Shown here: positions 15,638 to 56,926 of the stretch, in pieces
Layout: each line of letters opens with the position of its first letter
How positions within the stretch are numbered: the first letter of the stretch is position 1
Assembly (NCBI GenBank): GCA_016936215.1
Contig: JAFGPL010000111.1
Coordinates: 12,459-76,458 of the forward strand
DNA length: 64,000 bases
Origin: Bacteroidales bacterium
Lineage (GTDB): Bacteria; Bacteroidota; Bacteroidia; Bacteroidales; UBA10428
Reading direction: 5' to 3'
Notes under the pieces: generated by a model
What the model was told of the DNA's origin: nothing
Databases searched by the model: none
Seen by the model: the letters and a program-made list of their open reading frames with translations, nothing else
Made by a program: the position numbers and the translations under genes

Positions 15638-15642
15638 CAAAT

Positions 15643-24397: not shown

Positions 24398-26434
24398 TTA
24401 TCTAACGATAACCATTTTTTTCTCATCTACCTTTTTGTCATTCACAATTAAAAAATACGAATATATTCCTGCCGGCATATCCTGCAAATATAACTGGATA
24501 GACGAACTGCCTGAACCAACGATGCGGAATTCCCTGGTTTGGCCGTCAAACATGTTATAAACTGCAATGCTGGCATTTTCAGGTTCTTCTGCTAAATGGT
24601 AAAATACCGTGGTGATTCCATCTGAGGGATTGGGGCTGTTATACAAAAGATATGAGCTTTCCTGATCATCTGTTTGTAACCCTTCTCCAAAAGTATTACT
24701 GCTGTTAGCTGCATTGCTGCTTTTCAATACGGGGTCTGCTGGAAAACAGTCAAAAGTATTTTTAATATTGTAAGTTCCGTCACCCAGTTGTCCATAAATG
24801 TTCAAACCAGACCCGCAATACTTGTTATTGTAATCAAGAATTATGGTATGAGACCAACCAGCAGCCGCCATGGCACATTCCGGAATATTGGATATTTTTA
24901 CCGGGCTATATTGATCGGAGTTTGTACCATCACCTAATTGACCATATGTATTTGAGCCCCATCCCCAGAGCGTATTGTCAACCGCCGTAGCCATTGAAAA
25001 TTCATATCCTGCATCAATACTTTGCCAGGAATTATCTGAGCCTACTTCTACCGGCACATACGAAGGAGTAGTTGTTCCGTCACCCAGTTGGCCATAAGTA
25101 TTGTTCCCCCATACCCACAGGGTACCATCGGTTTTGAGTGCCATAGTATGGTAACCGCCACTTGAAGTCTGTTTCCAGTTATTGTCACCGGTTATTTTTA
25201 CAGGGGCTACCCTGCGTGATGTTGTACCGTCACCTAACTGACCATACCTGTTATCACCCCATGTCCAGAGTGTCCCATCGGTTTTTATGGCCAATGAATA
25301 AAGAAAACCGGCTTCAATTTCTTTCCAGTCTTTAGCATAACCGATCTTAACCGGTTGCAACTTGTTGAACATTGTACCATCGCCCAATTCGCCATACTTG
25401 TTATTACCCCATGCCCAAAGCGAACCATCGGTTTTTATGGCCAGGTTATGTGCAAAACCGGCAGATACTTTAGCCCAGTTTGTTGAACTGTCAACCAGTT
25501 CGGGTACAATTCTTTGTGTCGGGTCTCCCAATTCGCCCATACCTTGTGTACCCCATACCCATAAAGTACCGTCATTTTTTATCCCTGCTGCATGTGTATA
25601 ACCGGCAGAAACCTGTTTCCAGTCTGACTGGTCGCCTACCTGGACTGGTAAGTTTTTACCAATGATCGTTCCGTCGCCCAGTTGGCCATAAGAATTATCG
25701 CCCCATGCCCATAATGTACCATCTCCTTTTAAAAGCAAATTATAATCATTGCTGGTTGATAACCTGTCAAGATAACGAAGGGTCAAACGGGGATGCCTTG
25801 TTGAATCCAGGTGATCGCCAGAGCACAAAGCCATTCTGGTGTACCGCGATTCGCTCACCAGCCGTAACATAAATCCAAAACTGGACGCGGGATTTGCGAG
25901 CATATCCCTGACAAGGGAAGTTACATCAACATTTAAATAATCTTCGGTAAAGGTCTGGGATATTGGCAGTATTACCCGGTTTGTTGTGATAGAGGCCGGT
26001 TGAGTGTTATAAGTAACTGTTTTTTCATCCCAGTTCTCCGTTATACGTTCAAGGTAGCATGCATTTGACTTGTAACCGGTATTCTGCATCGTGATATAGT
26101 TCATATGCCGGTAATTGTCATTGGGTTGGGGCTGCATGGCATAAAAAGATAACCTGGCTTCCGCTATGTGGGCACCGGAAGGTATACCTGTCAGGTCAAA
26201 ATCTATAATGCTTCTGACATTGGTGCGGTATCCGCCGGCAGTCCATTCATCGGCAGAAAAAAGTGTATAACTGCCATAATTGGAGTTTGCCATATATTCC
26301 GAACCCGGTCTGAGGCTCAACAAAAGATAGGCATCTTTGCTGGGGCTCAGGGTTATTGATTGAGAAAAAATCAGCGGGTGCCATGATACGCAGAACATGA
26401 ACAATGCTATACTTAATATTATCTTGTTTTTCAT
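24398..26434 (-). CDS. Secreted RCC1-repeat beta-propeller protein with a DNRLRE-like N-terminal domain and a T9SS type-A C-terminal sorting domain
   Basis: Signal peptide MKNKIILSIALFMFCVSWHPLIFSQS (ATG at 26434; the track start at 26503 adds an implausible 23-aa extension). Seven W.WG.N.YGQLGDGT repeats. C-terminus ...YNSPNPSDGITTVFYHL...IYSYFLIVNDKKV..KMVIVR fits the type-A CTD pattern. Confidence 0.85.
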   Translation of the reverse strand: MKNKIILSIALFMFCVSWHPLIFSQSITLSPSKDAYLLLSLRPGSEYMANSNYGSYTLFSADEWTAGGYRTNVRSIIDFDLTGIPSGAHIAEARLSFYAMQPQPNDNYRHMNYITMQNTGYKSNACYLERITENWDEKTVTYNTQPASITTNRVILPISQTFTEDYLNVDVTSLVRDMLANPASSFGFMLRLVSESRYTRMALCSGDHLDSTRHPRLTLRYLDRLSTSNDYNLLLKGDGTLWAWGDNSYGQLGDGTIIGKNLPVQVGDQSDWKQVSAGYTHAAGIKNDGTLWVWGTQGMGELGDPTQRIVPELVDSSTNWAKVSAGFAHNLAIKTDGSLWAWGNNKYGELGDGTMFNKLQPVKIGYAKDWKEIEAGFLYSLAIKTDGTLWTWGDNRYGQLGDGTTSRRVAPVKITGDNNWKQTSSGGYHTMALKTDGTLWVWGNNTYGQLGDGTTTPSYVPVEVGSDNSWQSIDAGYEFSMATAVDNTLWGWGSNTYGQLGDGTNSDQYSPVKISNIPECAMAAAGWSHTIILDYNNKYCGSGLNIYGQLGDGTYNIKNTFDCFPADPVLKSSNAANSSNTFGEGLQTDDQESSYLLYNSPNPSDGITTVFYHLAEEPENASIAVYNMFDGQTREFRIVGSGSSSIQLYLQDMPAGIYSYFLIVNDKKVDEKKMVIVR
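24733..25741 (-). repeat. Seven tandem RCC1-like blades (protein-level repeat)
   Basis: GDNSYGQLGDGT / GTQGMGELGDPT / GNNKYGELGDGT / GDNRYGQLGDGT / GNNTYGQLGDGT / GSNTYGQLGDGT / GLNIYGQLGDGT, spaced about 50 aa apart. Coordinates approximate. Confidence 0.8.
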
Positions 26435-26503
26435 AAGTCTGAAATTTAGTTTTATGTTTTTATGTTCATGTTGGTTTAATCGGTAGCTAAAAAAATCTGT
26501 CAA

Positions 26504-27088
26504 TTAGTTATGTCTGTTTCCGTAGCCCTTTCTGTATGCCTGCCAGTCAATCATATGGACTTTTCCGTTTCTATCCCTGTGCCTGGGCTTACCATCCTTG
26601 CCAATAAATACATTGTCAAAGCTCCTGACATATTCTATTGAATCAAGACGGTTCATTGCCTTTACCCACTTTTCTCTTTCTGCAGCCGGGTCTATTAACT
26701 CACCCCTGTCGTTATGCTCGTATATTTTGTATTTCTGTCCCTTATAATCCTCACCGGTCATGATTACAAATGGCTCACTCAGCGACCTGTTTATCCTGAA
26801 ATACACCATATTGTCTTCAATTTTACAATCTGCAACTGTGTCCTTCAGAATATTTTTTGTAGAATATTTTTTAACCTTATCATTATATGTTATATATATA
26901 TGGTGGTATTTGCGTAACTCTTCAAGATTCAGCAGGCAGAACAATGATGGAATAGTATCCTCTTTTGATTTATGGGAGATTTTGTATTTATAGTAAGAAT
27001 TCTTCCATGGCAGTTTTTCCTGGGCATTCAATCCCGTTATAGAAGAAAGAAACCCTGATAAAAACAGTACGTATAAGATTTGTTTCAT
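26504..27088 (-). CDS. Secreted protein of unknown function
   Basis: Signal peptide MKQILYVLFLSGFLSSITGLNAQ. 194 aa, Lys/Tyr-rich. Same strand as the RCC1 gene and directly upstream of it. Confidence 0.55.
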   Translation of the reverse strand: MKQILYVLFLSGFLSSITGLNAQEKLPWKNSYYKYKISHKSKEDTIPSLFCLLNLEELRKYHHIYITYNDKVKKYSTKNILKDTVADCKIEDNMVYFRINRSLSEPFVIMTGEDYKGQKYKIYEHNDRGELIDPAAEREKWVKAMNRLDSIEYVRSFDNVFIGKDGKPRHRDRNGKVHMIDWQAYRKGYGNRHN

Positions 27089-27411: not shown

Positions 27412-27438
27412 GTTTTTACAAACAGTTAACCTTTGCAA

Positions 27439-30400
27439 ATGCTAAAAAGAGTTATTGCAATATCAGTTGTAGTATACATATTTTGTAATTCTTTTTCCCA
27501 GGATACAATTACCGGAATTGTAAACCATTATTTGAAGGTTTTGGCTGTAGGTACCGATGAAGCCACCTATGAAGACAACGCGGAAATTTCTTTTTTTCAG
27601 GATGGTGATAAAGTTCTATTGATACAAATGACAGGTGTGGAACTCGACACTACCGATGGGACAGGAAACCGTGGTGAACCTGCCCGTGGGACAAAGATTT
27701 CGGATAAAAATACAGGCCGTTATGAAATTCTGCAGGTTGAAGAGGTAGATCTTTTTAATAAAAAGATCATTTTTACCTCAGACCTAATGAATACTTATGA
27801 CAACGGTGAAAAAATCCAACTTGTAAGCGTGCGCGAGTGTGAAAACAACGCCCTTATAAGCGGGACGGCTACTGCCAAAGACTGGGATGGAAATACCGGG
27901 GGGATTCTGATCATGGTTGTTTACGATACCCTTCGTTTCGAAGGCAATATTGATGTCTCTGACAAAGGTTTCAGAGGGGCAACCCCAGAGACGAATTACA
28001 CAGGAGGGTGCCGGCCGGCAAATGACACCGTGAATTTTCTTACAATTGAAACCAACAGGGCTGGTGATAAGGGAGAAGGCAATGTGAGCATAACTTTTCC
28101 ATACGCCAAAGGTTGTTTCTTTGCTTCATCAGGAGGAGGCGGCGGAAACGGCTTGTTTTCGGGAGGTGGAGGTGGCAGTAATTTTGGCGATGGCGGAAAT
28201 GGCGGAAGACAGGATACTTCATGTAGTTTCGTCCCCCCGATTGCCATGGGGGGCCTGAATGCAAACGACCTCTACAGTAATAATTGCATTACCATGGGCG
28301 GAGGGGGCGGCGCAGGGGTACAAAGTACCGTAACCACTGCTTCTCAAGGTGGAGACGGCGGTGGAATTGTGATCATTGCAGCCGGAGTAATTACCGGAAA
28401 TAACTATAACATAATTGCAGACGGAGAAAACATAGAAGGAACTTACAATGCCAGTGGTGGTGGCGGCGGCGGCGGCGGGACAGTGTTGCTCGATGCCACA
28501 ACATTCGCTGGCGCCCTCAATATCTCGGTCAAAGGAGGCAGGGGCGGAAGCACAGGGTCAAGTTGCACCGGCTCAGGTGGAGGCGGTGGAGGCGGTGTAT
28601 TCTGGTTTTCAGGCCAAAACAAGGAATACTTTGTTTGCGATACTTCCCGTGGCGCCCCGGGAGGCGTTTCTGGTTGCAGCACGTCAGGCACATACGGTCT
28701 TCACGGTAAAACATTTCCCTCCCTGATATTACCATTAAACGGTTTTCTTTTCAATGTAATCAGGGGAAAAGATACACTCTGTGCAGGGCAGCAACCCAAA
28801 ATAATTACAGGAAGCAACCCCAAGGGCGGGGATGGCAATTATACCTTTAAATGGGAACAGAGCACCGATCAGCTATCATGGACCAATGCCACAGGCACCG
28901 GGGCAAACCAGCGGGATTTTACACCTGCACCGCTATACAATACTACTTATTTCAGAAGAATTGTAAGTGCTGGCGGTACCACACCACAGGCAGATACAGT
29001 GAGCAAGGTGGTTGAAATATATATCTATCCTGCTATATCCAATAATGAAATTTTTGGTACCGATACCATTTGCTATAACCATACTGCATTGCCGGTAACA
29101 GGTGGCCAACCAGCCGGCGGCGATGGCTCCAATTATACCTATCAATGGCAGACAAGCCTTAACCTCACCGACTGGAACGATGCGGGCAGCCTGCTTACGG
29201 CCAATCAGCCTTACCTTCCGGGACAGCTAACTGCCACCAGGTATTTCAGAAGATTTATTACTTCAACAAAATACTGCGCTGATTTCAGCGACACCGTAAC
29301 CGTAACCGTGTTGCCTTCAATTTCAAATAATTTTTTTAAACCCATAACAGACACCATTATCTGCCAGGGTCTGACGCCGGGGCTTTTACGTGCTGAACAA
29401 CCCATAAACGGCGATGGTTATTATACATACCTGTGGCAGAAAAAAGATAATTCAGGATGGGAAGATATTACTTCAAGCAATATCATGGAATATACCGCAG
29501 GCCCCCTTGCAAACAATACCCAATACAGGAGGATTGTTTTCTCAGGCAATGATAAAGCCTGTATTGATACATCAGATATAAAAAATATTACTGTATTGGA
29601 AGCCATTGCCAATAATTCCATATCAACCGATTCTTCAAGATACTGTCACGGAGATGTACCCCGTATGTTCAACGGCTCAGTCCCTTCGGGGGGAGACGGA
29701 CCGGGATCATACACATATAAATGGATCATAAACGAAGGAGCAGGCTGGAATGAAATTTCAGATGCCACAGATATAAGTCATTCGCATACAGCTCTTTTGC
29801 AGAACTCCGAATTTAAACGTATTGTTATTTCCGGTGTGTATGGTGCATGCAAAGATACTACCCCCCCACTCCAAATAACTGTAATTCCAGCTATTGTAAA
29901 TGATTTAGGACTTGATGCCCAGTCTATCTGCGAAAATAATGCCCCGTTGCCTTTCTCACCTCCAGCAGCGACAGGTGGCAATGGCTCATATACTTATCAA
30001 TGGCTGATCAGGCCGGAAAGCCAGGTTTCATGGTCGGATGCACCCGGTGTGAACAACCTGCATGATTATAATTCTCCTGCGCTTATTGACTCTGCAATTT
30101 TCGCCAGAAGAGTGGTTTCGGATATCTGTGCCGATACCAGCGAACCTGTTGAAGTGTATGTTTTTAAAAAAATTAAAAACAACTTCATTGCCGAAAATGC
30201 TTTAAAATATGCATGTTACAATACGCCGGAACTGCTTACCGGTTCCGTGCCCGTTGACGGCAAACACAATGACTACAAATATCTCTGGCAGATGGCCAAT
30301 ACTGCAGATACCTGGACAGATGCCACGGGAAATACTTCAAATAACTTACAGAATTTTGAAACTGAAAACCTTACTACCCCAAAATATTTCCGCAGAATTG

Positions 30401-31524
30401 TAATTTCATCAGCACAGGGCGCAGAATGCATTGATACCAGCAATTATGTACAGGTACTTATAAACCAGTTACCGGCCGGTTCTATCATTCCCTCGCAGGA
30501 TACAACATGCGAAGGCGGAACTGTTACTTTAAAATATACTGTTTCAGGCAATCATGGGCCCTGGAATATAACCTTTGGTGACGAAGCTGTAATCGGATCA
30601 GATATAACAACTTCAGAAGGAACAGACTCGGCAATATTTGTTTTTAACACTTCTCAAAATGTCCGTATACTGTCTGTTGAAGATGACAGCGGATGTTTTG
30701 CCGACCTCACGGCAGCTTCAGAAATGGTAAATGTAAAGGTTTATGATTTTCCCGAAGCCAATGCCGGCGACGATGCTGAAATATGCAACACCCAATATAC
30801 CCTTAATGCAACGAAAAGCTTACCCGGCACCCGGGGGGTATGGCAATCTTCATTGGGTGAATTTAATGATCCCTCGCTTGAAAATGCTACATTAACCATA
30901 AATCCTTTTATTTCAGGTAAGTTGAACGGATGGGTAAAATGGACCGAAACGAACTGGAGGTGCGCCGATTCAGACAGTGCTTACCTCATATTCTATGAAC
31001 AACCAACCGAAGCTGAAGCGGGTGAAAACAAAATACTCGATTATGTATTTCAAACAACGCTGGAGGCAGGACCGCTTATGTTTGGAAGCGGAAAATGGAG
31101 CCTTTCATCAGGAAATGCGGTATTTGAAAACGATACTATCCACAATACTTTCATCAGCGGGCTCGACTGGGATAATGTTCTTAAATGGACAGTTACAAAC
31201 GGAAACTGTCCTTCGGTTTCAGACAGCGTAAATATTTTTGTAAACAACCTGAAACTTCCCAATGGGTTTGCCCCTGACAATGGCTCGATGAATGTATTTA
31301 AGGTGGAAATTGAAAATGCCGAGAAGATTGAACTGATAGTTTTCAACCGTTTAGGCCAGATAGTGTTTGAAGAACCCAATTACACCGAAGGGAATTTTTG
31401 GGACGGCACCAATCAGAATAAAACAGAACTGCCCGAAGGCACCTATTTCTATATTTTAAAGGTCAAAATAGCCGGAAAAGGTGAAATGCCCCCATATAAA
31501 AGTTACATTGAACTGCTGAGATAA
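27439..31524 (+). CDS. Giant cell-surface protein with a T9SS type-B (gliding motility-associated) C-terminal domain
   Basis: Signal peptide MLKRVIAISVVVYIFCNSFSQ. Poly-glycine module, then six ~96-aa repeats. C-terminus LPNGFAPDNGSMNVFKV...LIVFNRLGQIVFE...WDGTNQ...PEGTYFYILKV...YIELLR matches the type-B CTD pattern (PN.F.P..D..N..F...I.NRWG..VF...W.G...G...P.GTY.Y). The track start at 27433 is TTG. Confidence 0.85.
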   Translation: MLKRVIAISVVVYIFCNSFSQDTITGIVNHYLKVLAVGTDEATYEDNAEISFFQDGDKVLLIQMTGVELDTTDGTGNRGEPARGTKISDKNTGRYEILQVEEVDLFNKKIIFTSDLMNTYDNGEKIQLVSVRECENNALISGTATAKDWDGNTGGILIMVVYDTLRFEGNIDVSDKGFRGATPETNYTGGCRPANDTVNFLTIETNRAGDKGEGNVSITFPYAKGCFFASSGGGGGNGLFSGGGGGSNFGDGGNGGRQDTSCSFVPPIAMGGLNANDLYSNNCITMGGGGGAGVQSTVTTASQGGDGGGIVIIAAGVITGNNYNIIADGENIEGTYNASGGGGGGGGTVLLDATTFAGALNISVKGGRGGSTGSSCTGSGGGGGGGVFWFSGQNKEYFVCDTSRGAPGGVSGCSTSGTYGLHGKTFPSLILPLNGFLFNVIRGKDTLCAGQQPKIITGSNPKGGDGNYTFKWEQSTDQLSWTNATGTGANQRDFTPAPLYNTTYFRRIVSAGGTTPQADTVSKVVEIYIYPAISNNEIFGTDTICYNHTALPVTGGQPAGGDGSNYTYQWQTSLNLTDWNDAGSLLTANQPYLPGQLTATRYFRRFITSTKYCADFSDTVTVTVLPSISNNFFKPITDTIICQGLTPGLLRAEQPINGDGYYTYLWQKKDNSGWEDITSSNIMEYTAGPLANNTQYRRIVFSGNDKACIDTSDIKNITVLEAIANNSISTDSSRYCHGDVPRMFNGSVPSGGDGPGSYTYKWIINEGAGWNEISDATDISHSHTALLQNSEFKRIVISGVYGACKDTTPPLQITVIPAIVNDLGLDAQSICENNAPLPFSPPAATGGNGSYTYQWLIRPESQVSWSDAPGVNNLHDYNSPALIDSAIFARRVVSDICADTSEPVEVYVFKKIKNNFIAENALKYACYNTPELLTGSVPVDGKHNDYKYLWQMANTADTWTDATGNTSNNLQNFETENLTTPKYFRRIVISSAQGAECIDTSNYVQVLINQLPAGSIIPSQDTTCEGGTVTLKYTVSGNHGPWNITFGDEAVIGSDITTSEGTDSAIFVFNTSQNVRILSVEDDSGCFADLTAASEMVNVKVYDFPEANAGDDAEICNTQYTLNATKSLPGTRGVWQSSLGEFNDPSLENATLTINPFISGKLNGWVKWTETNWRCADSDSAYLIFYEQPTEAEAGENKILDYVFQTTLEAGPLMFGSGKWSLSSGNAVFENDTIHNTFISGLDWDNVLKWTVTNGNCPSVSDSVNIFVNNLKLPNGFAPDNGSMNVFKVEIENAEKIELIVFNRLGQIVFEEPNYTEGNFWDGTNQNKTELPEGTYFYILKVKIAGKGEMPPYKSYIELLR
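28127..28600 (+). other. Poly-glycine module within the type-B cargo protein
   Basis: SSGGGGGNGLFSGGGGGSNFGDGGNGG, MGGGGGAG, QGGDGGGIVIIAAG, SGGGGGGGGTVLLDA, KGGRGGSTG, GSGGGGGGGVFWF: Gly runs alternating with short hydrophobic strands. Includes (GGT)2(GGC)5GGG at 28456-28479. Confidence 0.7.
28780..30507 (+). repeat. Six tandem ~96-aa Cys-bracketed repeats (protein-level, diverged at DNA level)
   Basis: Each unit reads C....P..(L/I)....P.GGDG.Y.Y.WQ.....W.D......(Y/F).P..L...T.(Y/F)RR.V.S...C.D.S..V.(V/I).V. Units start at Cys codons about 288 nt apart. Confidence 0.75.
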
Positions 31525-31525: not shown

Positions 31526-32443
31526 ATGCGTTATAAAACATACATATTCACGGTACTTTTCCTCATCTTCACGATAAACGGCAGATGCCAGGACCGCGCT
31601 ATACTTAACAGCCAGTACCAATTCAACGGGTTGGTGATCAATCCGGCGTATGCCGGTCGCAACGAGGTTTTTACCTTTTTATTTTCGCACCGTAACCAAT
31701 GGATGGGCTTTGAAGGCGCCCCTAAAGCATATACCCTTAGCCTGCACTGGCCGATGAAAAACATTAAAACTGCCCTGGGCATCCTGGGCTACCAGGAAGA
31801 GATCGGATCAAGAAAATATTCGAGTGTATACTTTAATTATGCCCACAGGATAACACTCGGAAACGGAAGATTATCTATGGGGCTCAGGGGAGGAATAGCG
31901 TCGGGCAGATTTGATATGATTGACCTGGGAAATGGAGAATTTGTATTTGATGATAAACTGCAGAATTTCCTGCTCCCGAATTTTGGCTTAGGTGTTTTTT
32001 ACTACACCCAAAACCTTTTTGCAGGAATTTCAATACCCCTGCTCCTGGGTTATAAAGTTACGGATGAACCGGCCGGGTTACAAGTCTACCATGACTTTAG
32101 CAATTACGGCTATTGTCTCACAGCCGGATATTCTTTTCCGATAAACAATACTTTAAGACTACAGCCTTCTACCTTAATCAGGTATCAAAAAAGCTATTCT
32201 TTCACCCCGGATTTAAACATCAATCTTATTTATAAAGATAATTTTATGGGGGGATTGTCTTACAGGCCGAACGAAGCTTTTATCTTTTTATTTAACTGGA
32301 AGTTTAATTACCAGTCAAGGCTTGGGGTATCTTACGACTTCGGATTGGGTGATTTAAGCAATTATCATAACGGTTCGCTTGAATTTACTTTTCAATATGA
32401 ATTTGGATATAAAATCAGGGTGTCAGATCCGGGAAACTTTTAA
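31526..32443 (+). CDS. PorP/SprF-family T9SS membrane protein (second paralog, cognate to the type-B cargo)
   Basis: SQYQFNGLVINPAYAG motif and barrel-like sequence. The start is 1 nt after the cargo gene stop. Type-B CTD genes are typically followed by a PorP/SprF-like gene. Confidence 0.85.
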   Translation: MRYKTYIFTVLFLIFTINGRCQDRAILNSQYQFNGLVINPAYAGRNEVFTFLFSHRNQWMGFEGAPKAYTLSLHWPMKNIKTALGILGYQEEIGSRKYSSVYFNYAHRITLGNGRLSMGLRGGIASGRFDMIDLGNGEFVFDDKLQNFLLPNFGLGVFYYTQNLFAGISIPLLLGYKVTDEPAGLQVYHDFSNYGYCLTAGYSFPINNTLRLQPSTLIRYQKSYSFTPDLNINLIYKDNFMGGLSYRPNEAFIFLFNWKFNYQSRLGVSYDFGLGDLSNYHNGSLEFTFQYEFGYKIRVSDPGNF

Positions 32444-32446: not shown

Positions 32447-33880
32447 ATGGGGAAATTAATTTGTCATATAATCACATTTATAATTTTTTATGCTGTTTCG
32501 GTGCAATCCATTGCGCAAAAACATTTTTCTGCCCAGAAACTTTCGTTCAACAACCCAATGAGCGATGAGTATGCCCCCATGTTTTTCCAAAATGACATTG
32601 TTTTTGTTTCGAACCGGAAAAATGATGTTTTAATTACCCATACCGATATGAGCGACAGACCGTTGAACAATATTTATCTTGTAAAGCAAAGAAAACCGGG
32701 CCGGTTCGGCCCTGCACAACTTTTTTCAAGAGATATTTCAACACGTTACAACGAAGGCCCTGTTTCATTCAGTAACGATGGCAAAACAATGTATTTTTCG
32801 CGAAACATTGATGTTTCAAAAAGTTTCGGAAACAGCCTGAGGGGAGATTCCACCCTGGGTCTTTTCACGGCCGAACTTGTTAATGAAAACTGGGTAAACA
32901 TCAAACCTGTCCAAAGATTTAACAGGCCAAATTACAATCACAGTTTTCCCTTTATTACCGATGATGGAAAACAACTATTTTTCGCGTCAGATGACCCCCG
33001 TGGTTTTGGCGGTTATGATATTTACGTCTCTGAACTGGAAGGTGGTGCATGGGGACCGGCACAAAACCTGGGCAATAAAATCAATACCAAAGAAAATGAA
33101 GTCTTTCCGTTTTGCCATGCTGGTGGCAGATTGTATTTTTCATCACGCGGACATGATAATAATACCGATCTTGATATTTTTTATTCAGAACTGATTGACG
33201 GTGAATGGCAGGAACCTGTAAAAATGCCTGCCCCTTTCAATTCCGATAATGATGATTTCAGTTTTATCATTAATTCAACCATGGATACAGGCTTTTTTGC
33301 GTCAGACCGTTCACAATCGCGCGACATCTTTATGTTTAGTTCAACCCTTCCGGTTTTCACTAATTGTCCCCGGCAGCAGGAAAACGATTACTGTTATATA
33401 TTTTACGAACAGGGAAGCATAGACCTTGACACCACTTCCTTCAGGTACGAATGGGATTTGGGCGACGGTACCAGGATACGCGACCTCGAAGCCAATCACT
33501 GTTATAAAACACCAGGCCTGTACCTTATAAAACTAAATGTAATTGATACGCTCACAGGCGAAGTCTATTTCAGCCAGGCAGAATATGAACATATGGTAGA
33601 AGAGATCGAACAACCATATATTACCATGCCCGACACGGTTTCCGCGACAGAGGTAGTTGCCTTCGGCGCAGGCAAAACCCATCTTTTAAATTTCGAGATT
33701 GATAATTTTTACTGGGATTTTGGTGACGGCACGAGGGCTTCCGGAATTAACGTCAATCATGTCTTCACAAAACCCGGAACCTATATGGTTCAGCTTGGCG
33801 TTTTAAGTACTACAAACAACGAAAACCAGGAACCACAACAAAGATGTGTTACCCGTCCATTGGTTGTAATAAGGGACTAG
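32447..33880 (+). CDS. Secreted PD40 (TolB-like) repeat protein with two C-terminal PKD-like domains
   Basis: Signal peptide ...SVQSIAQ. Repeated PD40-like units (MYFSRNID, LFFASDDPRGFGGYDIYVSE, LYFSSRGH..DLDIFYSE, GFFASDRS..RDIFMF). Two PKD signatures (YEWDLGDGT, FYWDFGDGT...HVFTKPGTYMVQLGV). No OmpA-like C-terminal domain is visible. Confidence 0.75.
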   Translation: MGKLICHIITFIIFYAVSVQSIAQKHFSAQKLSFNNPMSDEYAPMFFQNDIVFVSNRKNDVLITHTDMSDRPLNNIYLVKQRKPGRFGPAQLFSRDISTRYNEGPVSFSNDGKTMYFSRNIDVSKSFGNSLRGDSTLGLFTAELVNENWVNIKPVQRFNRPNYNHSFPFITDDGKQLFFASDDPRGFGGYDIYVSELEGGAWGPAQNLGNKINTKENEVFPFCHAGGRLYFSSRGHDNNTDLDIFYSELIDGEWQEPVKMPAPFNSDNDDFSFIINSTMDTGFFASDRSQSRDIFMFSSTLPVFTNCPRQQENDYCYIFYEQGSIDLDTTSFRYEWDLGDGTRIRDLEANHCYKTPGLYLIKLNVIDTLTGEVYFSQAEYEHMVEEIEQPYITMPDTVSATEVVAFGAGKTHLLNFEIDNFYWDFGDGTRASGINVNHVFTKPGTYMVQLGVLSTTNNENQEPQQRCVTRPLVVIRD

Positions 33881-33970: not shown

Positions 33971-34939
33971 ATGAAGCAGATTTTATATTGCATCACAGCA
34001 TTGTTCATTCTAATCCCACTCGCATACAGTCAGCCTGTGCCGGCAGGCGATGAAAATATTCCCTACCTGATGACCTTTGGCCCAAAGGCAGAAAAATCAT
34101 GGGGCGATGATGATTTTTCCCAGACATTTTTTTTCAGGATACCCCGGGACTTTAAAGAGCCCTTATATATCAAGGTTTACGACCCGGATGCCGGCGGGGC
34201 CCTTGATGAACTCAACGGTATTTGGGATACAAAAACAACCTATTCTGTTTTTGGCGGAAAAGAGTGTTATACTCACAAAGACGCACAGGAAACACAGCCT
34301 GTAGGCAATTACAAAAGCGGCAACCTTCTGGCGACAAAAACCTTTGGTGAAGATGTCCGGTACGACAAAGGCTGGTATACTTTCGGCCCCTTTAATCCAA
34401 CCGAAGGGGAACTGGTTACCAAATTTGACGGTTATATTTTCAAAATCGTTGCCGACGGGATAACCGGCGACGATGGCAATTTATACAGGTTTTACCTGAG
34501 CACTAGCTATAGCGAAAATAAACCTATTGAAGGGGCTAATGCTTTTACCTACGAATATTCCTTCAGGATGCATGATGACCCTAACGAAGTGTCTCATATT
34601 TATCCTTATGTAGATGATAAAACCATCAGTGTAAAACTATCAAACTTCGACTGGGACAACGACGGTTTCATCAGAACCGTATCTGTAGCCAGACAGGGTC
34701 AGATGAGCAAGGTGTCTAACGAAGACGAGTGGATAGAAGATGAGTTTAAAATCATGGACGAAGAACACAATAAATCTCTTGATATTCAGTTCATTAAAAA
34801 AAGAAATCCGCCTGTCAGAAATAACAATGTCGTGGTAAATGTACGAAACCAATACGGGGAACTGCTTCCATTCTTTGTTATTCCAATTGGAGGGGTCCCG
34901 AAATATAAATATTCCATTGGCACAAAAAAACCCAATTAA
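33971..34939 (+). CDS. Secreted protein of unknown function
   Basis: Signal peptide MKQILYCITALFILIPLAYSQ (ATG at 33971; the track start at 33965 is TTG). 322 aa, acidic. No family recognised. Ends 21 nt before the sensor-phosphatase gene. Confidence 0.6.
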   Translation: MKQILYCITALFILIPLAYSQPVPAGDENIPYLMTFGPKAEKSWGDDDFSQTFFFRIPRDFKEPLYIKVYDPDAGGALDELNGIWDTKTTYSVFGGKECYTHKDAQETQPVGNYKSGNLLATKTFGEDVRYDKGWYTFGPFNPTEGELVTKFDGYIFKIVADGITGDDGNLYRFYLSTSYSENKPIEGANAFTYEYSFRMHDDPNEVSHIYPYVDDKTISVKLSNFDWDNDGFIRTVSVARQGQMSKVSNEDEWIEDEFKIMDEEHNKSLDIQFIKKRNPPVRNNNVVVNVRNQYGELLPFFVIPIGGVPKYKYSIGTKKPN

Positions 34940-34960
34940 TGACAAGCAAATAATTCAAAA

Positions 34961-37900
34961 ATGAACAGATTATTAGCCGCGAAACTACTAACCCTATGCC
35001 TTGCACTTTATTTTTTAAGTCCTTACGATTCGTTTAACCAAAGTTACAAATTTAAAAAATACGGGATACAACAGGGTATATGCCATCCTTTTGTATATAC
35101 CATCAACCAGGATAAAAACGGTTTTATCTGGATAGGGACCGGAGAAGGGTTATGCAGGTTTGATGGCTTCGATTTCAGCACCGAGACGGTTTCAGACATT
35201 GTTGAACGCGATGTGGCCAATATTAGTTTTAAAGACACTAAAGGCAACCTGTGGTTTGGATTTCACAATGGTGCAATAATTATTTACGACGGAAAGAAAT
35301 TTACACCGGCTAAAACAATTGAGCCCATCAAAGGCACCATCACAGGTTTTGCTGAAGATACCGAAGGTAATATCCTGGTTTCGGTTATGACCGGGGGTAT
35401 ACTTGTTATAAAAGACTTTCAGGAAACAAAAAGAATCAGCAGTGAATTGAATAACAATTTGTTAACATTCATTTGTCTGAAAAAAAACCTTTTACTCTCA
35501 GGTTCGCAGGAAGGTTTGAGTATATATTCATACCAGCCTGGTGGTTCAGATTTAAAATTGTTGACAGATATTAAAGAACTTGAATATATTAAAATACAAA
35601 ACATTAAGCCTTCAATTTCAGATGATGGATATTGGATAGGCACAGAAGATGAAGGCTTGTACTTTTTACAGACTGACGATAATGGATCATATTCACTCAG
35701 GAAAAAAGGAGAAGAATTTAATCTCGGCACCCTTAATGTTCAATCAATCTATCAAGACGGGGAAAAGAATTTATGGGTCAGCACGCTTCGGTCGGGGGTA
35801 TATAAATTTCTTTACAACGAGTCTGAAAACAGTTTTTCCGATGTAATTAACTATACCAAAGAAAATGGACTTACAGGAAATTCGATAAAAGAAGTATTTG
35901 AAGACAGGGAAGGCAATATCTGGATAGCCACATATGGCGACGGCCTGGCCATATTTCTGAGCGACGCCCTTACATTCTATGGCTACCAGGTAAATGGATT
36001 TGACAATAATATTACAGCAGTTTGTGCCCAGGACAGCATTGTATGGCTTGGAGGGATGGGAAACCTGTTAAAAACCAATATTACCAAAGAAAACAAACCA
36101 TTAAAATTCAATACAGCACATGGCCTGCCTAATGATCTTATAACTGCATTGTTTTACGATAAAAAGGGTACATTATGGATTGGTACCGAAAAAAACGGCA
36201 TTTACAGGATGAATGTTACAACCGGTAAAATTTCAAAATTTGTTTATCCGGCCAATTCGCTGGGACTTTCAGTTAAATCAATTATCGGGGAAGGAAATTC
36301 GGTATACGCCGCCACCAAAGAAGGTATTTACTACTTTAACCCCGACAACGATGAAAAAGTACACTATAGCACTAACAACGGGCTGCCCCACAATGTTATA
36401 GAACATGTTTTTCTTGATAGCGAAAACAACCTTTTATTTGCAACCCAGGCAAATGGTATTTATGCTATTGATGCCTTCGGCGAAATTCAGGAACGTTTTA
36501 TCACCGGTGACTTTGAGCTCGATTTTAATTCCATTGCACAGGATAAGAACGGAAATATCTGGGCATCCACCTACGGATTCGGTGTTTATTTTTTCGGTAA
36601 AGACACTTTTATAAACATTACTGCCGAAGATGGGCTGAAATCGGATTTTTGTTACAGTATTATAGCTTCAGGCGATGGAAACGTTTGGGTAGGCCACAGG
36701 CTTGGAATTACCAAAATAAATATTAACAGTTTTTCAAAATACATTTACGATGTTGAAAAAGGGATAACCGGCGATTGCAATTACAACAGCGTTTGTAGGG
36801 ACAGAAACGGGAAACTCTTTTTTGGAACCACCGAAGGGCTTATCTGTTATGACCCCTCGAAAGATAAAAGCGCTTCCATTCCGCCAAATACAAATATCCT
36901 GAGGGTGCTGATCAACGATCAGCCTGTTGATTTCAAAAACGACATACTGCTTCCTTACTCAAAATATAAGATCAGGATTGAATTTGCCGGGCTCTATTAC
37001 CGCGATCCCGAAAGGGTAAATTACCGTTATAAGCTCGAAGGGTTTGACCCAGAGTGGTCAGATGTTTCCAACCTAAATTACGTGGTATACCCTCGCATAA
37101 CAGACGGAAAATATACTTTTTACCTGAAATCGTTTATCGAGAGCGAAACTGATATTAACACCCCGGTAATTATTAAATTACGTATCAAACTTCCATTTTA
37201 TAAAACCTGGTGGTTTATATTATTATCACTTTTACTACTGGTAGTAATCGTTCTGCTTATCATAAAATTCAGGGAGAGAAAGCAAAAGCAACTTCAGGAA
37301 TACCTTGAAAAAAGCCTTGCTGAAAGAACCAGGGAAGTTGTTGAACAGAAAGAGGAAATCGAGATCAAGAACAGGGACATTACCGACAGCATAAATTATG
37401 CACAACGGATACAGGCGAGTATTTTGCCCCCAATCAAGCGTTTGCAACAGAATTTTGCCGGTGCTTTTGTTTTCTATCAACCACGGGACATCGTAAGCGG
37501 TGATTTTTACTGGTACGATAAAATTTCAGATTCCAAATTTATAATTGTATGCGCCGATTCAACAGGGCATGGTGTTCCGGGGGCTTTCATGTCAATGATA
37601 GGCACTACGCTTATCAAAGATATCTGTTTCAGGGAAGCCACAGGTTCTCCGTCTGAAATACTCAGAAGCCTGGACCAAGAGCTAAGAAACACCCTCAACC
37701 AGAACCTCGAAGCCGAAAAAGCAAATGACGGTATGGATATTATCGTCTGTGAGATTGACCTTAAGTCTTATTATATAAGATATGCTTCTGCCATGCGCCC
37801 GATGATTGTTTACAAAAACGGGGAAGAAATCTATGTGAAAGGCAGCAGGAGCTCTGTTGGCGGACATTATGACAAATCAGAAAAAAATTTCCAGGACGAA

Positions 37901-38134
37901 GGGATACAATTAAGTCCCGGCGACCTTATTTATATGTTTTCAGATGGTTACCCCGATCAGTTTGGTGGGCCTATGGGTAAAAAGTTTAAAATGGTAAGGC
38001 TTAAAAGCCTGCTTGAAGATATCAACAAAAAACCCATGGAAGAACAGTACAACCATGTTAAAAACACATTTAACCTTTGGAAAGATGCATTTCCGCAGGT
38101 TGACGATGTTTTGTTCATGGGCATTAAACTCTAA
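34961..38134 (+). CDS. Sensor protein: two-component-regulator propeller repeats + Y_Y_Y domain + TM + coiled coil + SpoIIE/PP2C phosphatase
   Basis: N-terminal signal/anchor. Many Reg_prop-like repeats (DKNGFIWIGTGEGL, DTKGNLWFG, DREGNIWIATYGDGL, DKKGTLWIGTEKNGI, DKNGNIWASTYGFGV, GDGNVWVGHRLGI). Y_Y_Y motif NYRYKLEGFDPEWSD. TM WWFILLSLLLLVVIVLLII. PP2C/SpoIIE motifs (SGDFYWY, ADSTGHGVPGAFMSMIG, DGMDIIVCEID, SDGYPDQFGG). Confidence 0.85.
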   Translation: MNRLLAAKLLTLCLALYFLSPYDSFNQSYKFKKYGIQQGICHPFVYTINQDKNGFIWIGTGEGLCRFDGFDFSTETVSDIVERDVANISFKDTKGNLWFGFHNGAIIIYDGKKFTPAKTIEPIKGTITGFAEDTEGNILVSVMTGGILVIKDFQETKRISSELNNNLLTFICLKKNLLLSGSQEGLSIYSYQPGGSDLKLLTDIKELEYIKIQNIKPSISDDGYWIGTEDEGLYFLQTDDNGSYSLRKKGEEFNLGTLNVQSIYQDGEKNLWVSTLRSGVYKFLYNESENSFSDVINYTKENGLTGNSIKEVFEDREGNIWIATYGDGLAIFLSDALTFYGYQVNGFDNNITAVCAQDSIVWLGGMGNLLKTNITKENKPLKFNTAHGLPNDLITALFYDKKGTLWIGTEKNGIYRMNVTTGKISKFVYPANSLGLSVKSIIGEGNSVYAATKEGIYYFNPDNDEKVHYSTNNGLPHNVIEHVFLDSENNLLFATQANGIYAIDAFGEIQERFITGDFELDFNSIAQDKNGNIWASTYGFGVYFFGKDTFINITAEDGLKSDFCYSIIASGDGNVWVGHRLGITKININSFSKYIYDVEKGITGDCNYNSVCRDRNGKLFFGTTEGLICYDPSKDKSASIPPNTNILRVLINDQPVDFKNDILLPYSKYKIRIEFAGLYYRDPERVNYRYKLEGFDPEWSDVSNLNYVVYPRITDGKYTFYLKSFIESETDINTPVIIKLRIKLPFYKTWWFILLSLLLLVVIVLLIIKFRERKQKQLQEYLEKSLAERTREVVEQKEEIEIKNRDITDSINYAQRIQASILPPIKRLQQNFAGAFVFYQPRDIVSGDFYWYDKISDSKFIIVCADSTGHGVPGAFMSMIGTTLIKDICFREATGSPSEILRSLDQELRNTLNQNLEAEKANDGMDIIVCEIDLKSYYIRYASAMRPMIVYKNGEEIYVKGSRSSVGGHYDKSEKNFQDEGIQLSPGDLIYMFSDGYPDQFGGPMGKKFKMVRLKSLLEDINKKPMEEQYNHVKNTFNLWKDAFPQVDDVLFMGIKL

Positions 38135-45093: not shown

Positions 45094-47157
45094 TTATTTC
45101 ACATTGAGCAGCGCTTCATCCACCGCTTTCAATAATGGGTTGTTTGATATCCCCTCCCCTACTGCATGCTTCATCCATAAATCGGGCGTAAGGTTGCCGG
45201 ATGAGAAAATGCGTTTTATTTCGGCAACAAAATCTTTATCTGCAATATATTCTTCAATTTGGTAATCAATAAGATGACCTACCGGGTAAGCAGAAAGGTA
45301 CAACGGGTATGCTATCATGTGTGAATATATGGCAAGTATCACCTGGTCTTTAACACCAAAAATACCGGCATAATATCTATTCCAGATATCTTTTGAAATG
45401 CTTAGCACTGCATCTTTCAGTTCTTTAACAGTTGCCCCGGGGTTCTCGTAAAGCCATTTCCATACCGCCATATCTACCAGCGATACACCCATTATTTCAT
45501 AACACGACCAGAAAATATCAAGCGCCATAAGATGTCTCTCTTCTTCACCGGGACTTCCCAACCCCAGCAGTTCGAGATCGCGTTTCTGAAAAATAAAGGC
45601 AAGGGCTTCGGTAAATGCTGTATTGGGTATCCCTTTAAGTCTATAATAATCTGTTTTATACAGTGTAAGTGTTTGTTCTACATTATGTCCGAATTCATGC
45701 ATGGCAATGTTGTAACCTTTGTAATTCATCCCATTTTTCCCGATACGGGTCCTGAGGTGCGACTTTTCTGTCCTCATTTCAGCGCCAAATGCATGCCCTG
45801 CTCCCCTTGAGGGATCAACGGTAACCCGTGATGCAACAAATTGTGCATCTTCGCGGCTGAACCCAAGTTTTTGAAGTATCACCGGCATATCGGCTTCGAA
45901 AGCGGTGGGTGAAGGATATTTTTTTGCTGTAATTTCATCAAGTACCTTTTCGTCGGTTTTGTTTCCGGTCGGTTTAAAACCGTTATACCATATATCAAAA
46001 GGTTCCAGCGGCCGGTTAAGACGCTTGCTGATAAATTGCGCAACTCTCCGAACTTCTTCAGATGAAAGCAGTTCTGTAAACAGCTTTTCAACTTCGGGCA
46101 GGGGCATCTGCATTGACTGGTCAAAAGCCCTTGCGATAGCAGTATTATAAAAAGGACTGTAACTGTCAATACTGGTATTTGCTTTAAAAAGATCGAGCAG
46201 GTGCTGATAGCGAACATTGTTTTCCGGCCTGGCTTCCACAACTTCATTTTCAAGAAATAACTCATTGGTAAAAGGGTTCCAGCGGTATTCATTATTATTG
46301 ATGACCTGTGCCGGAATTTCCTGGGTGATAATATTTTCCATTACCTTGTATATCATGCACTGTTTAAGTAACCCTTCAGCCAGAAGGTAGTTTGATTTAA
46401 TCTCGTCGCGCAACCCCCAGTGCGAAATAAGTTTCATTTCAGCCGGAAAATAAGATCTCATGGAGCTGTCGGTAAGGTTGCCCATGTAAATATTATATTC
46501 GTCAATATAAGCGCCTGCAAGGGTAATAATGTCCGAATAATTCTGATTTACTGCAGCAGGAATCCTGTCTGATACAGCATCACCAACCCTTGCAAAAGCC
46601 CATTCTTTTCTCGACCATGCTGAACCTTTATCCAACTTGTCCTGGAGTGTATAAAACGGGAAATTCAGCAATATTATAAACGAAACTTTATTTTTAAAGA
46701 AATCGTCTGACAGGTGGCTTGAGGGATCATAACTCCCCATAAGCATGTCAATGGGCGTAATGTCGCCCATATCAAGATCAAGTGGTTCGCGCAACTGAAG
46801 CGACATTTTTGTGAAGTTGCCGGTTAATATTTCAAAATTCCTCTCAAGCTTTTGAAATAAAACATCCAGTGCTTCACCCCGTGGCAGAAAATTTTCCATG
46901 CAAAATAATCTGAACGCTTCTGCCGATCCATCCTGCTCCATCCAGAACCTTGCAACCTGCATCACCCCCTGCTCTATCCTGAACCTGTTTTCTTCGCCAT
47001 ACCTGGTAACCAGTCTGTCTTTAATATCATTTTGTGATTTTTCATCAATATACTTTCCCATATTTTCGGAATTATCTTTTTGAGACAATTTGTTTTGTGG
47101 CCCTGAACAAGAAATAGTTAAGGTCAAAGCAAGAAATAATACCGGATAGGTCTTCAT
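45094..47157 (-). CDS. Lipoprotein zinc metallopeptidase (HEFGH gluzincin, M3-like)
   Basis: Lipoprotein signal MKTYPVLFLALTLTISC (ATG at 47157). HEFGH zinc motif with a downstream Glu (TEALAF). The track start at 47283 would overlap the ald gene by 101 nt and lacks a signal peptide. Confidence 0.7.
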   Translation of the reverse strand: MKTYPVLFLALTLTISCSGPQNKLSQKDNSENMGKYIDEKSQNDIKDRLVTRYGEENRFRIEQGVMQVARFWMEQDGSAEAFRLFCMENFLPRGEALDVLFQKLERNFEILTGNFTKMSLQLREPLDLDMGDITPIDMLMGSYDPSSHLSDDFFKNKVSFIILLNFPFYTLQDKLDKGSAWSRKEWAFARVGDAVSDRIPAAVNQNYSDIITLAGAYIDEYNIYMGNLTDSSMRSYFPAEMKLISHWGLRDEIKSNYLLAEGLLKQCMIYKVMENIITQEIPAQVINNNEYRWNPFTNELFLENEVVEARPENNVRYQHLLDLFKANTSIDSYSPFYNTAIARAFDQSMQMPLPEVEKLFTELLSSEEVRRVAQFISKRLNRPLEPFDIWYNGFKPTGNKTDEKVLDEITAKKYPSPTAFEADMPVILQKLGFSREDAQFVASRVTVDPSRGAGHAFGAEMRTEKSHLRTRIGKNGMNYKGYNIAMHEFGHNVEQTLTLYKTDYYRLKGIPNTAFTEALAFIFQKRDLELLGLGSPGEEERHLMALDIFWSCYEIMGVSLVDMAVWKWLYENPGATVKELKDAVLSISKDIWNRYYAGIFGVKDQVILAIYSHMIAYPLYLSAYPVGHLIDYQIEEYIADKDFVAEIKRIFSSGNLTPDLWMKHAVGEGISNNPLLKAVDEALLNVK

Positions 47158-47182
47158 TTTTTTTTTTTGATGATCTTGGTTA

Positions 47183-48406
47183 TCAGAATGCTGCCATAAG
47201 CAAATCAATATCTTTTGAGGGGATATTAAAATTGCTTCCAAGCAACTCATTGGTAAGTATGCCATTATAAAGATAAACGCCATGCCTTACCCCAAGGTTA
47301 GACTTTAGAAATGGTTTGATGCCGCCGGAATTCCCTATTTCCATCATTATGGGCGAAATGATGTTGCTTAGCGCAATGGAAGCAGTGCGTGCCACCCTGG
47401 ATGGAAGATTGTTAACACTGTAATGCACCACATCGTGCTTGGTATATACCGGATCAAGCAGGGTGCGGCATTCTGATGTTTCGATGCAGCCCCCCTGGTC
47501 AATGCTGATGTCTATAATTACTGAGCCTTTTTTCATCTCTTTAACCATCTCCTCGGTAACAAAATACCGTGGACCCCGGTCGTAGAGATTATATGCGCCT
47601 ACCAGTACATCGGCCGATTTAAGGGTGCGGCGCAGCACGCGGGGATGAAATATTGAAGTATGAAGCCTTGTGCCGAGATTTTTTTGAAGTTGTTCAAGTT
47701 TTTGCGGTGAAGGGTCAAACACCTTTACAAATGCACCCAGCCCAAGCGCTGCCCTGGCGGCATATTCGGCTGCTGTACCTGCACCTATGATTACAACCTC
47801 GGTAGGTGTAATACCTGAAATTCCGCCTAACATCACACCTTTACCACCACTGTTGTTGCTGAGGTATTCTCCGGCAATGATAATTGCAGTGTTACCGGCA
47901 ATAGCATTCATTGACTGCAAAACCGGGAAAAAGTTATACTCATCTTTTACGTATTCATAGGCAATGGCAGTAACTTTTTTGTCCATAAGCTTACGGATGT
48001 ATCCTTCGGTCTGGGTATAAACATGCAACCCTGAAAAGACCACCTGGTTTCCTTTCAGAAGGTCAATTTCTTCCAGGTCGAGGGGGGCAACTTTAAGGAT
48101 AATGTCGGCACCAAGCACCTGGGCTTTATTATCTACGATAAAACCACCAAATTCACTGTAGCTCTGGTCTGAATAATGAGCCCCTTCACCGGCCCTCGAT
48201 TCGATAAGCACATCATGCCCGTTGTCTATCAACACCTCTACTGCCTCGGGGGTTAATGAAACACGCTGTTCAATATGCTGTTTCTCGCGCGGTATTCCGA
48301 TAGTAAGCTTTTTCTGCCGCTTACCAATTTCAAGCATTTCTTCCTGTGGCAACATGCCCCCGTACATTAACGGCATGTTGTGAGATTCGGGTCTTTGTTC
48401 AACCAT
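47183..48406 (-). CDS. ald: Alanine dehydrogenase / PNT-family NAD-dependent dehydrogenase
   Basis: AlaDH/PNT N-terminal domain (IGIPREK..EQRVSLTPE). Rossmann motif VIIGAGTAAEYAARAA. The exact start is uncertain, as there are several in-frame Met codons in the first 25 codons. Confidence 0.75.
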   Translation of the reverse strand: MVEQRPESHNMPLMYGGMLPQEEMLEIGKRQKKLTIGIPREKQHIEQRVSLTPEAVEVLIDNGHDVLIESRAGEGAHYSDQSYSEFGGFIVDNKAQVLGADIILKVAPLDLEEIDLLKGNQVVFSGLHVYTQTEGYIRKLMDKKVTAIAYEYVKDEYNFFPVLQSMNAIAGNTAIIIAGEYLSNNSGGKGVMLGGISGITPTEVVIIGAGTAAEYAARAALGLGAFVKVFDPSPQKLEQLQKNLGTRLHTSIFHPRVLRRTLKSADVLVGAYNLYDRGPRYFVTEEMVKEMKKGSVIIDISIDQGGCIETSECRTLLDPVYTKHDVVHYSVNNLPSRVARTASIALSNIISPIMMEIGNSGGIKPFLKSNLGVRHGVYLYNGILTNELLGSNFNIPSKDIDLLMAAF

Positions 48407-56458: not shown

Positions 56459-56926
56459 TTATTTCAGAGCTTCTACCCTGATGCCAATATCGGTGACCCC
56501 TTCCAGGTTCTGGTCCCACATACCATGCTGCAGGTTAAAGGTATAAATACCCCTGAACGGGAATTTAATATTCTTTTTATAAGGAACCTGCAGGCTGTAA
56601 ATGCTTCCTGCACCTTTACCGTACCACCTTCCCGATTCATCTGCAAGTTGAATCCCGAAAGTGTCCTTTAACTGGTTTCCGTTAGGGGCGTATGTAGTGA
56701 TAAATAAATAAATATTGCTGTAAGGATATTCTGAAGATGTACGAATATTAAGGTAAATATCATGCGGACGAGTTGTATCGTCAATATTGGCATTAAAAAC
56801 CATAGTGTCGTTGTAGTTCCATGAGAAATCATTAAATGCCACATTTTTTTCAAACACTGCCCTATGTTTGCATGATACCAGGCAAAAAGCAATTGCTGTT
56901 ATCAAAAAAATACCTGTATTTCTCAT
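56459..56926 (-). CDS. gldH: Gliding motility lipoprotein GldH
   Basis: 155 aa. Lipobox FCLVSC. SSEYPYSNIYLF and GRWYGKG motifs. Located downstream of holB and the PSP1-domain gene, as described for Flavobacterium gldH. Confidence 0.8.
   Translation of the reverse strand: MRNTGIFLITAIAFCLVSCKHRAVFEKNVAFNDFSWNYNDTMVFNANIDDTTRPHDIYLNIRTSSEYPYSNIYLFITTYAPNGNQLKDTFGIQLADESGRWYGKGAGSIYSLQVPYKKNIKFPFRGIYTFNLQHGMWDQNLEGVTDIGIRVEALK

Follow-up and report, generated by a model that had tools for sequence, protein, structure and literature searches.

Accessory periplasmic co-sensors are known from the LuxP-LuxQ and TorT-TorS systems, whose protein families are unrelated to the proteins reported here. 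Membrane-anchored sensor phosphatases are exemplified by SiaA of the Pseudomonas aeruginosa SiaABCD system (structure 6K4E), in which a helical linker precedes a PP2C domain with DxxGHGVPGA and DGxxDQxGG motifs and which acts on a STAS-like protein in a partner-switching system (PMC8457831), and the phosphatases of RsbU/SpoIIE partner switching belong to the same PPM catalytic family and are regulated through an N-terminal sensor and a helical linker (PMC12143880). In the hybrid two-component systems (HTCS) of Bacteroides (BT4663, structure 4A2L; also 3V9F and 3OTT), Reg_prop propellers, a Y_Y_Y domain and one transmembrane helix are followed by HisKA, HATPase_c, receiver and AraC domains. At the cell surface, type-B cargo proteins of the T9SS (type IX secretion system) are anchored by PorP-like proteins, often with PorE-like partners, and in Flavobacterium johnsoniae and Porphyromonas gingivalis the cassettes consist of a CHU_C cargo, a PorP/SprF-like and a PorE-like protein (PMC9143113). 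In P. gingivalis, the inner-membrane sensor PorY has a periplasmic ligand in the C-terminal domain of PorA, a T9SS cargo (PMC12152298). Here we analysed a stretch of 64,000 nucleotides (nt) from a Bacteroidales bacterium (assembly GCA_016936215.1, contig JAFGPL010000111.1, positions 12,459 to 76,458; called the window below, with positions counted from its first letter), in which an HTCS-type sensor module and a SiaA-type phosphatase are joined in one protein, encoded directly behind the gene of a secreted protein of 322 amino acids (aa) that we call p322.

The p322 gene lies at 33971-34939 on the forward strand (+) and starts with ATG, with an in-frame TTG at 33965, and after a gap of 21 nt (34940-34960) it is followed by the gene of the 1057-aa sensor phosphatase at 34961-38134 (+). 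Both open reading frames (ORFs) and the gap sit where a preliminary description of this DNA had placed them, and since both frames are long and have thousands of homologues, chance is not an issue. p322 is a signal-peptide protein of an unnamed family with two predicted beta-sandwich domains, and we propose it as a periplasmic co-sensor or adaptor. We read the pair as the signalling side of a six-gene cluster that is conserved in environmental Bacteroidales, and, at a probability of roughly 0.5, p322 would be the periplasmic co-sensor that couples a cargo cassette to the transmembrane phosphatase. New here are p322 as a family still without a name, the near-obligate association of its members with propeller sensors, and the position of the pair inside a type-B cargo cluster of the T9SS that has a second sensor kinase at its head; in the literature searched, we found no specific description of either the architecture or the cluster.

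We found that the 1057-aa protein contains, by profile search with Pfam, Reg_prop repeats (E 4.5e-39), a Y_Y_Y domain (E 6.8e-10) and a SpoIIE domain (E 1.6e-19; PF07228, 71 bits against a cut-off of 25, spanning aa 857-1055). Its hydropathy profile displays a weakly hydrophobic N-terminal signal or anchor at aa 4-22 and one strong transmembrane segment at aa 744-774, and because of this combination aa ~26-745 are assigned to the extracytoplasmic side and aa ~775-1057 to the cytoplasm; the sensor is, as its sequence predicts, a bitopic inner-membrane protein. Along the gene, with all parts on the forward strand, an N-terminal signal or anchor segment recognised by hydropathy (aa 1-25; 34961-35035), which is only 19% conserved among orthologues, is followed by the periplasmic sensor module (35036-37195), composed of tandem Reg_prop beta-propellers (~aa 26-640) and a Y_Y_Y Ig-like domain (~aa 641-745) as delimited by Pfam and by relatives in the Protein Data Bank (PDB). 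Next come a single transmembrane helix (~aa 749-768; 37205-37264; hydropathy peak 3.26), a cytoplasmic helical linker (aa 769-830; 37265-37450) and the SpoIIE/PP2C (PPM) phosphatase domain of SiaA/RsbU type, assigned by PF07228, 6K4E and its Asp motifs (37451-38134, stop codon included).

The periplasmic part matches the solved sensor domains of Bacteroides HTCS (3V9F, 4A2L and 3OTT; E 1e-43 to 5e-30), and the PP2C part matches the SiaA phosphatase 6K4E, its closest solved relative (E 5.5e-36), with the linker aligning to the helix that precedes the PP2C domain in that structure. Upon alignment, the SGDFY, DSTGHGVPGA, SDGYPDQFGG and VDDV motifs fall on their SiaA counterparts and are invariant in 121 orthologues, including the metal-binding aspartates D848, D866, D995 and D1048/D1049 that lie in the SGDFY, DSTGHG, SDGY and VDDV motifs, respectively. 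The preliminary description had proposed, from the letters alone, that an HTCS-type periplasmic module is joined here to a PP2C phosphatase, and the profile searches, the structural relatives and the orthologue alignment all bear this out, with the catalytic motifs intact. Judging from these motifs, the phosphatase is very probably active. Mean identity among the 121 orthologues reaches 88% in the linker, the most conserved stretch of the protein, and 78% in the PP2C domain, whereas it is 45-54% in the periplasmic part, and this far better conservation of the linker and the PP2C domain therefore implies a conserved cytoplasmic target or partner.

With regard to the preliminary description, one correction is that the fusion of propellers to PP2C is common. 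Thousands of database proteins carry it (7325 matches, among which P0121 is identical to the phosphatase of the window), they are already annotated automatically as 'SpoIIE family protein phosphatase' or 'ligand-binding sensor domain-containing protein/serine phosphatase RsbU', and by itself the fusion is not new. With respect to the described systems, the protein differs from SiaA in its periplasmic double propeller with Y_Y_Y and in its place within a T9SS cargo cluster after p322; the NCBIfam model of SiaA (NF038263) is its top match, but at 177.9 bits against an equivalog cut-off of 700, and over model positions 381-655 alone, it falls outside the SiaA equivalog. In contrast to the Bacteroides HTCS, it has SpoIIE alone past the transmembrane helix in place of HisKA, HATPase_c, receiver and AraC domains, its gene does not lie in a polysaccharide utilisation locus, and it has a dedicated upstream gene for a secreted partner.

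To place the pair in its genomic context, we used a close set of 80 species-level loci plus one complete genome (81 loci) and a distant set of divergent metagenome loci, in which p322 is 42-71% identical. A profile of distant p322 members mostly re-found the core subfamily and also gave members of 49-57% identity, which were used for locus look-ups. The usual gene order is the 1222-aa histidine kinase, the type-B T9SS cargo, a PorP-like protein, a PD40/PKD (PorE-like) protein, p322 and the propeller/Y_Y_Y sensor, and in the close set this order is kept wherever the flank allows. The sensor follows p322 in 68/68 close loci with at least 3.3 kb downstream, as an intact ORF in 66 of these 68, starting at a median of 12.5 nt past the p322 stop. 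Nearly every close locus has a PD40 and/or PKD protein ahead of p322. In the distant set, a propeller/Y_Y_Y sensor lies beside p322 in 33/36 loci with enough flank, and among the distant loci with at least 3 kb upstream we observe a PD40 and/or PKD protein before p322 in 35/44, PorP in 29/44 and CHU_C in 28/44. Look-ups that start from the sensor side recover the same cluster. The two genes thus stay together well beyond this genome, and the link of the pair to the type-B cargo cassette, which the preliminary description had offered with reserve, is upheld by the conserved gene order. A promoter and terminator scan, which does not model Bacteroidetes promoters, gave counts equal to those of shuffled sequence.

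When the proteins of the close set are compared with those of the window, p322 displays the highest median identity of the cluster (69%), against 49% for the sensor, 45% for the 1222-aa kinase, 43% for the PD40/PKD protein, 38% for the PorP-like protein and 34% for the cargo, which is the least conserved. Its value is close to those of the housekeeping neighbours rluF (68%) and glmM (64%), and p322 is thus conserved like a housekeeping gene.

p322 itself has an N-terminal hydrophobic signal sequence in its hydropathy profile, with neither a lipobox nor a T9SS C-terminal domain. We obtained zero matches in Pfam-A and NCBIfam and zero sequence matches in the PDB, profile search included, in keeping with its earlier characterisation as a secreted protein of unknown family. 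Its homologues fall into 4360 clusters when grouped at 90% identity and into 590 when grouped at 50%, and relatives are present in at least 524 species genomes. A first AlphaFold2 model, built on a shallow alignment, had a pLDDT (predicted local distance difference test) of 65, and the model on a diverse alignment reached a pLDDT of 88.7 and a pTM (predicted template modelling score) of 0.86, with a strand pattern that reads as two predicted beta-sandwich domains. Foldseek of the model against the PDB returned loose matches to tandem beta-sandwich proteins alone, at a template modelling (TM) score of ~0.2, and no convincing fold. The sequence is rich in invariant acidic clusters, namely WGDDD, DPDxGG..DE, GDDGN and NFDWDxDG.

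Next, we consider the output of the sensors that follow p322, which is usually PP2C and sometimes a histidine kinase. HisKA/HATPase_c replaces PP2C in L082, L083/L084 and L087/L088, two PAS domains stand before SpoIIE in L089, and in the sensor of L108 no output domain was detected. The periplasmic parts of the PP2C and the histidine-kinase sensors are collinear up to the transmembrane helix, with 26% identity, and the p322 proteins that accompany the histidine-kinase sensors are ~49% identical to the p322 of the window. As p322 is retained while the output swaps, its tie is to the extracytoplasmic sensor module and not to the output domain. The observed swap agrees with a published proposal that, behind linkers of dimeric helical or coiled-coil type, PPM, histidine-kinase and GGDEF domains can replace one another as outputs (PMC12143880). 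Furthermore, in P0246 a p322-like domain forms the C-terminal part, past the membrane M56 domain, of a BlaR1/M56-type transducer, an arrangement that fits a sensing role. The suggestion in the preliminary description that the secreted protein could be a co-sensor gains support from both the retention of p322 across the change of output and the occurrence of its domain in this transducer.

Under the co-sensor reading, p322 would stay in the periplasm and bind the propeller/Y_Y_Y module as an accessory co-sensor, reporting either a ligand or the state of the envelope complex of cargo, PorP-like and PorE-like proteins. Its input would alter the geometry of the linker and the dimer and would in this way switch the activity of the phosphatase. 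By analogy with SiaA, the PP2C domain would then dephosphorylate a STAS- or SiaC-like phosphoprotein encoded elsewhere, and this dephosphorylation may change gene expression or surface and motility functions. In a more far-reaching version, the cluster would act as a trans-envelope relay, in which the surface cargo held by its PorP-like and PorE-like partners signals secretion, load or surface contact via p322 to the propeller sensor and onwards to Ser/Thr dephosphorylation, or to histidine-kinase signalling in the sister clusters. We regard this version as unlikely. The co-sensor reading is supported by the described anchoring of type-B cargo by PorP-like proteins, often with PorE-like partners (PMC9143113), and by the PorA-PorY case, in which a secreted or periplasmic protein, there a T9SS cargo element, is likewise the input of an inner-membrane sensor (PMC12152298). 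The two cases differ in that the protein families are unrelated, the output in the window is a Ser/Thr phosphatase and the interaction between p322 and the sensor is a putative one.

Several observations weigh against p322 being a co-sensor. Adjacency and probable co-transcription do not prove that p322 binds the sensor, and p322 is far more conserved than the periplasmic domain of the sensor, as one would not usually expect of two proteins dedicated to binding each other. In three distant loci p322 lacks a sensor beside it, and one of the three (L093) keeps the trio of cargo, PorP and PorE-like genes. All 80 loci kept are from uncultured Bacteroidales or Bacteroidota metagenome-assembled genomes, and all carriers seen are uncultured. 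In addition, in its commonest fusion the p322-like domain stands at the N-terminus, ahead of 5-15 tandem PKD domains (P0262, P0263, P0277, P0282, P0305, P0304, P0323, P0325, P0337, P0359, P0376, P0287, P0322 and P0375), and these fusions point equally to the PKD-bearing protein encoded upstream as the partner of p322. A fusion of p322 to the sensor, which would have been evidence of the Rosetta-stone kind, was sought among long p322-domain proteins and rejected, as 14/14 of those scanned (760-1618 aa) consist of p322 and PKD arrays. In P0279, the p322-like domain comes after TIG domains.

The PKD fusions, together with the PKD-bearing protein encoded upstream, would fit a contact of p322 with that protein, and they lend weight to an alternative that is possible though on the unlikely side, namely that p322 is a structural or assembly subunit of the attachment complex of the type-B cargo, with the sensor adjoining it through co-regulation and binding its own ligand directly. 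The propeller domains of HTCS do bind their ligand unaided, as in BT4663. Such a subunit is also what L093 would lead one to expect, since it retains the cargo, PorP, PKD/OmpA and p322 genes with no sensor next to them, and so is the almost invariable presence of a PD40 and/or PKD protein before p322. Yet L082 and L085 show the reverse, having p322 and the sensor with neither cargo nor PorP genes, and in the distant set adjacency to the sensor (33/36) exceeds that to PorP (29/44) and CHU_C (28/44). The spacing also argues against it, with the median gap between p322 and the sensor of 12.5 nt being much shorter than the 92 nt between the PD40/PKD gene and p322.

The two modelled beta-sandwich domains have also to be weighed under a second, improbable alternative, in which p322 works in the periplasm as a lectin or an enzyme, binds or processes a glycan or an envelope-derived molecule, possibly one released by the cargo, and presents the molecule or its product to the sensor in the manner of a periplasmic binding protein. 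The modules matched weakly by its fold include tandem carbohydrate-binding and collagen-binding ones and others like them, the invariant acidic clusters suggest metal or sugar sites, and the very high conservation of p322 would fit a conserved small ligand. However, the fold matches are poor (TM score ~0.2), we recognised no catalytic motif and obtained no family assignment, and the cluster has no glycan-utilisation genes.

Regarding the target of the phosphatase, we found no STAS protein, SiaC/DUF1987 protein, RsbW/SiaB-type kinase or sigma factor among all substantial non-nested ORFs of the window, scanned with Pfam and/or NCBIfam, as the preliminary description had already noted for partner-switching genes in this stretch. 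All-against-all clustering of the ORFs of 88 related loci, combined with Pfam, likewise revealed no recurrent partner-switching gene; what recurs around these loci are the housekeeping genes rluF, glmM and era and a DUF5686 protein, plus a clade-specific GerE regulator and a hemerythrin-like protein. With no partner-switching gene in the window or in ~100 related loci, the substrate of the phosphatase is therefore encoded elsewhere or unconventional. This separates the locus from SiaABCD, since genes for an adjacent SiaB kinase, SiaC (DUF1987) and SiaD cyclase are missing from the window and the syntenic loci, and from RsbU/SpoIIE partner switching, where the differences are the extracytoplasmic sensor of the window protein and the lack of STAS, kinase and sigma factor genes nearby in the window or syntenic loci. 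In the literature searched, Ser/Thr-phosphatase signalling in Bacteroidales was not found described.

Two other neighbours of the phosphatase gene were observed in subsets of the loci. In 20 loci of one clade, a convergent GerE/LuxR regulator of 200 aa abuts the end of the phosphatase gene (L038 14127-14729 (-), L016 14728-15465 (-) and 18 other loci), the N-terminal half of which is receiver-like with a marginal score against Response_reg (E 0.0094, 16.5 bits against a cut-off of 30.2), and the hemerythrin-like protein follows it. This regulator, which has no homologue in the window, could be a clade-specific output or a coincidence. In 33 loci (L071 7892-8389 (-) and 32 others), a 165-aa lipoprotein-like protein with no Pfam match is encoded downstream of the phosphatase gene, at a median distance of 1.4 kb, and none is present in the region of the window examined. 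That the PP2C domain acts outside partner switching altogether, on a protein encoded in the cluster or on a T9SS or gliding protein, candidates being the 1222-aa kinase and an atypical regulator phosphorylated on Ser/Thr, would accord with the lack of STAS, SiaC and RsbW-type genes near the cluster in the loci examined, with the conserved histidine kinase at the cluster head, with the GerE-type regulator directly after the phosphatase gene in those 20 loci and with PorX and PorW being encoded 11-15 kb away in the window, but it is highly unlikely given that SiaA, the closest characterised relative, acts on a STAS-like protein in a partner-switching system, that the GerE regulator is confined to one clade and missing from the window, and that we know of no PPM phosphatase that targets a histidine kinase.

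The remaining members of the cluster are all encoded upstream of the pair on the forward strand of the window. The first is the 1222-aa polytopic sensor histidine kinase (20665-24333, +), with HAMP, HisKA and HATPase_c domains by Pfam and ~12 hydrophobic segments by hydropathy, which lies directly upstream of the cargo gene in most loci with enough flank and is the conserved first gene of the cluster. The ~900 N-terminal residues ahead of its HAMP/HisKA/HATPase_c part have no Pfam match, and no response regulator is encoded adjacent to it. In this genome alone, two reverse-strand genes (24398-27088, -) part the kinase from the cargo, coding for a 701-aa RCC1-repeat/CBM96 protein, which ends in a weak type-A T9SS tail, and a 194-aa protein with no family match; neither has a tblastn match in the 81 related loci, which suggests that they were inserted locally.

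The cargo is a T9SS type-B protein of 1363 aa (27433-31524, +) with a signal peptide, an AgmC_N-like N-terminus and Ig-like repeats, and its C-terminal sorting domain is CHU_C (66.5 bits, cut-off 27). Over the first 400 aa it is similar to the N-terminal domain of AgmC, a protein of myxobacterial gliding, with a score of 172 bits that is below the cut-off, and aa 1098-1282 (30724-31278), just before CHU_C, resemble the GhpA repeats of the Aureispira grappling hook (9FLP, E 5e-11). The gene for the PorP/SprF-like outer-membrane protein, the presumed anchor of the cargo, begins 1 nt past the cargo stop (31526-32443, +; PF11751 E 1.5e-57; PorP_SprF 195.6 bits against 22.3; TIGR03519 206 bits against 90.55), and a CHU_C cargo followed by a PorP/SprF-like gene makes this a type-B cassette. 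The next protein in order, of 477 aa (32447-33880, +), is a secreted PD40 beta-propeller with two PKD domains and a signal peptide, as assigned by Pfam, NCBIfam and hydropathy. It falls short of PorE, which combines TPR, propeller, CRD and OmpA_C, as it scores 148.8 bits against 600 with NF052230 through its propeller part alone and has no OmpA domain; the PD40/PKD variants of 724-814 aa in other loci carry one. The trio resembles the cassettes of F. johnsoniae and P. gingivalis, the published ones differing in that they have not been described with p322 or a sensor gene and that the PorE-like protein of the window lacks OmpA. The preliminary description was right that a type-B cassette stands upstream of the pair, but it overlooked the conserved kinase that heads the cluster, as well as PorX and PorW.

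Beyond the cluster, the window is rich in core genes of the T9SS and of gliding. A second PorP/SprF gene is followed by a gldK-like (FGE-sulfatase) gene, gldL, gldM and gldN (572-6496, +), and on the reverse strand lie the genes for the PorX response regulator (48985-50547, -; 792 bits against a cut-off of 300), which has no adjacent kinase, for PorW/SprE (50587-53247, -; 703 bits against a cut-off of 250) and for GldH (56459-56926, -). Other reverse-strand genes encode a 505-aa protein with DUF5723 (9668-11185, -), a 550-aa protein with no Pfam or NCBIfam match (11178-12830, -), a 929-aa protein with DUF3352 above the Pfam cut-off and weak FG-GAP matches (12851-15640, -), and a 729-aa protein with no match in Pfam or NCBIfam (45094-47283, -).

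The ways in which Bacteroidota sense and control their numerous type-B surface proteins of the T9SS are little understood, as is the role of PorE-like proteins. The cluster offers a handle on both, as it brings together a cargo cassette, two membrane sensors and an unannotated, very conserved exported protein in at least ~500 species. p322 is a defined candidate co-sensor family that deserves a family name, and the sensors that follow it provide a natural case of one sensor module coupled to PP2C in some loci and to a histidine kinase in others, as well as an entry point to Ser/Thr-phosphatase signalling in Bacteroidales. Overall, the cluster looks like a previously undescribed way of linking the cell surface to intracellular signalling, and, if the trans-envelope relay is true, it would be a dedicated surface-sensing pathway of environmental Bacteroidales built on the type IX secretion system.

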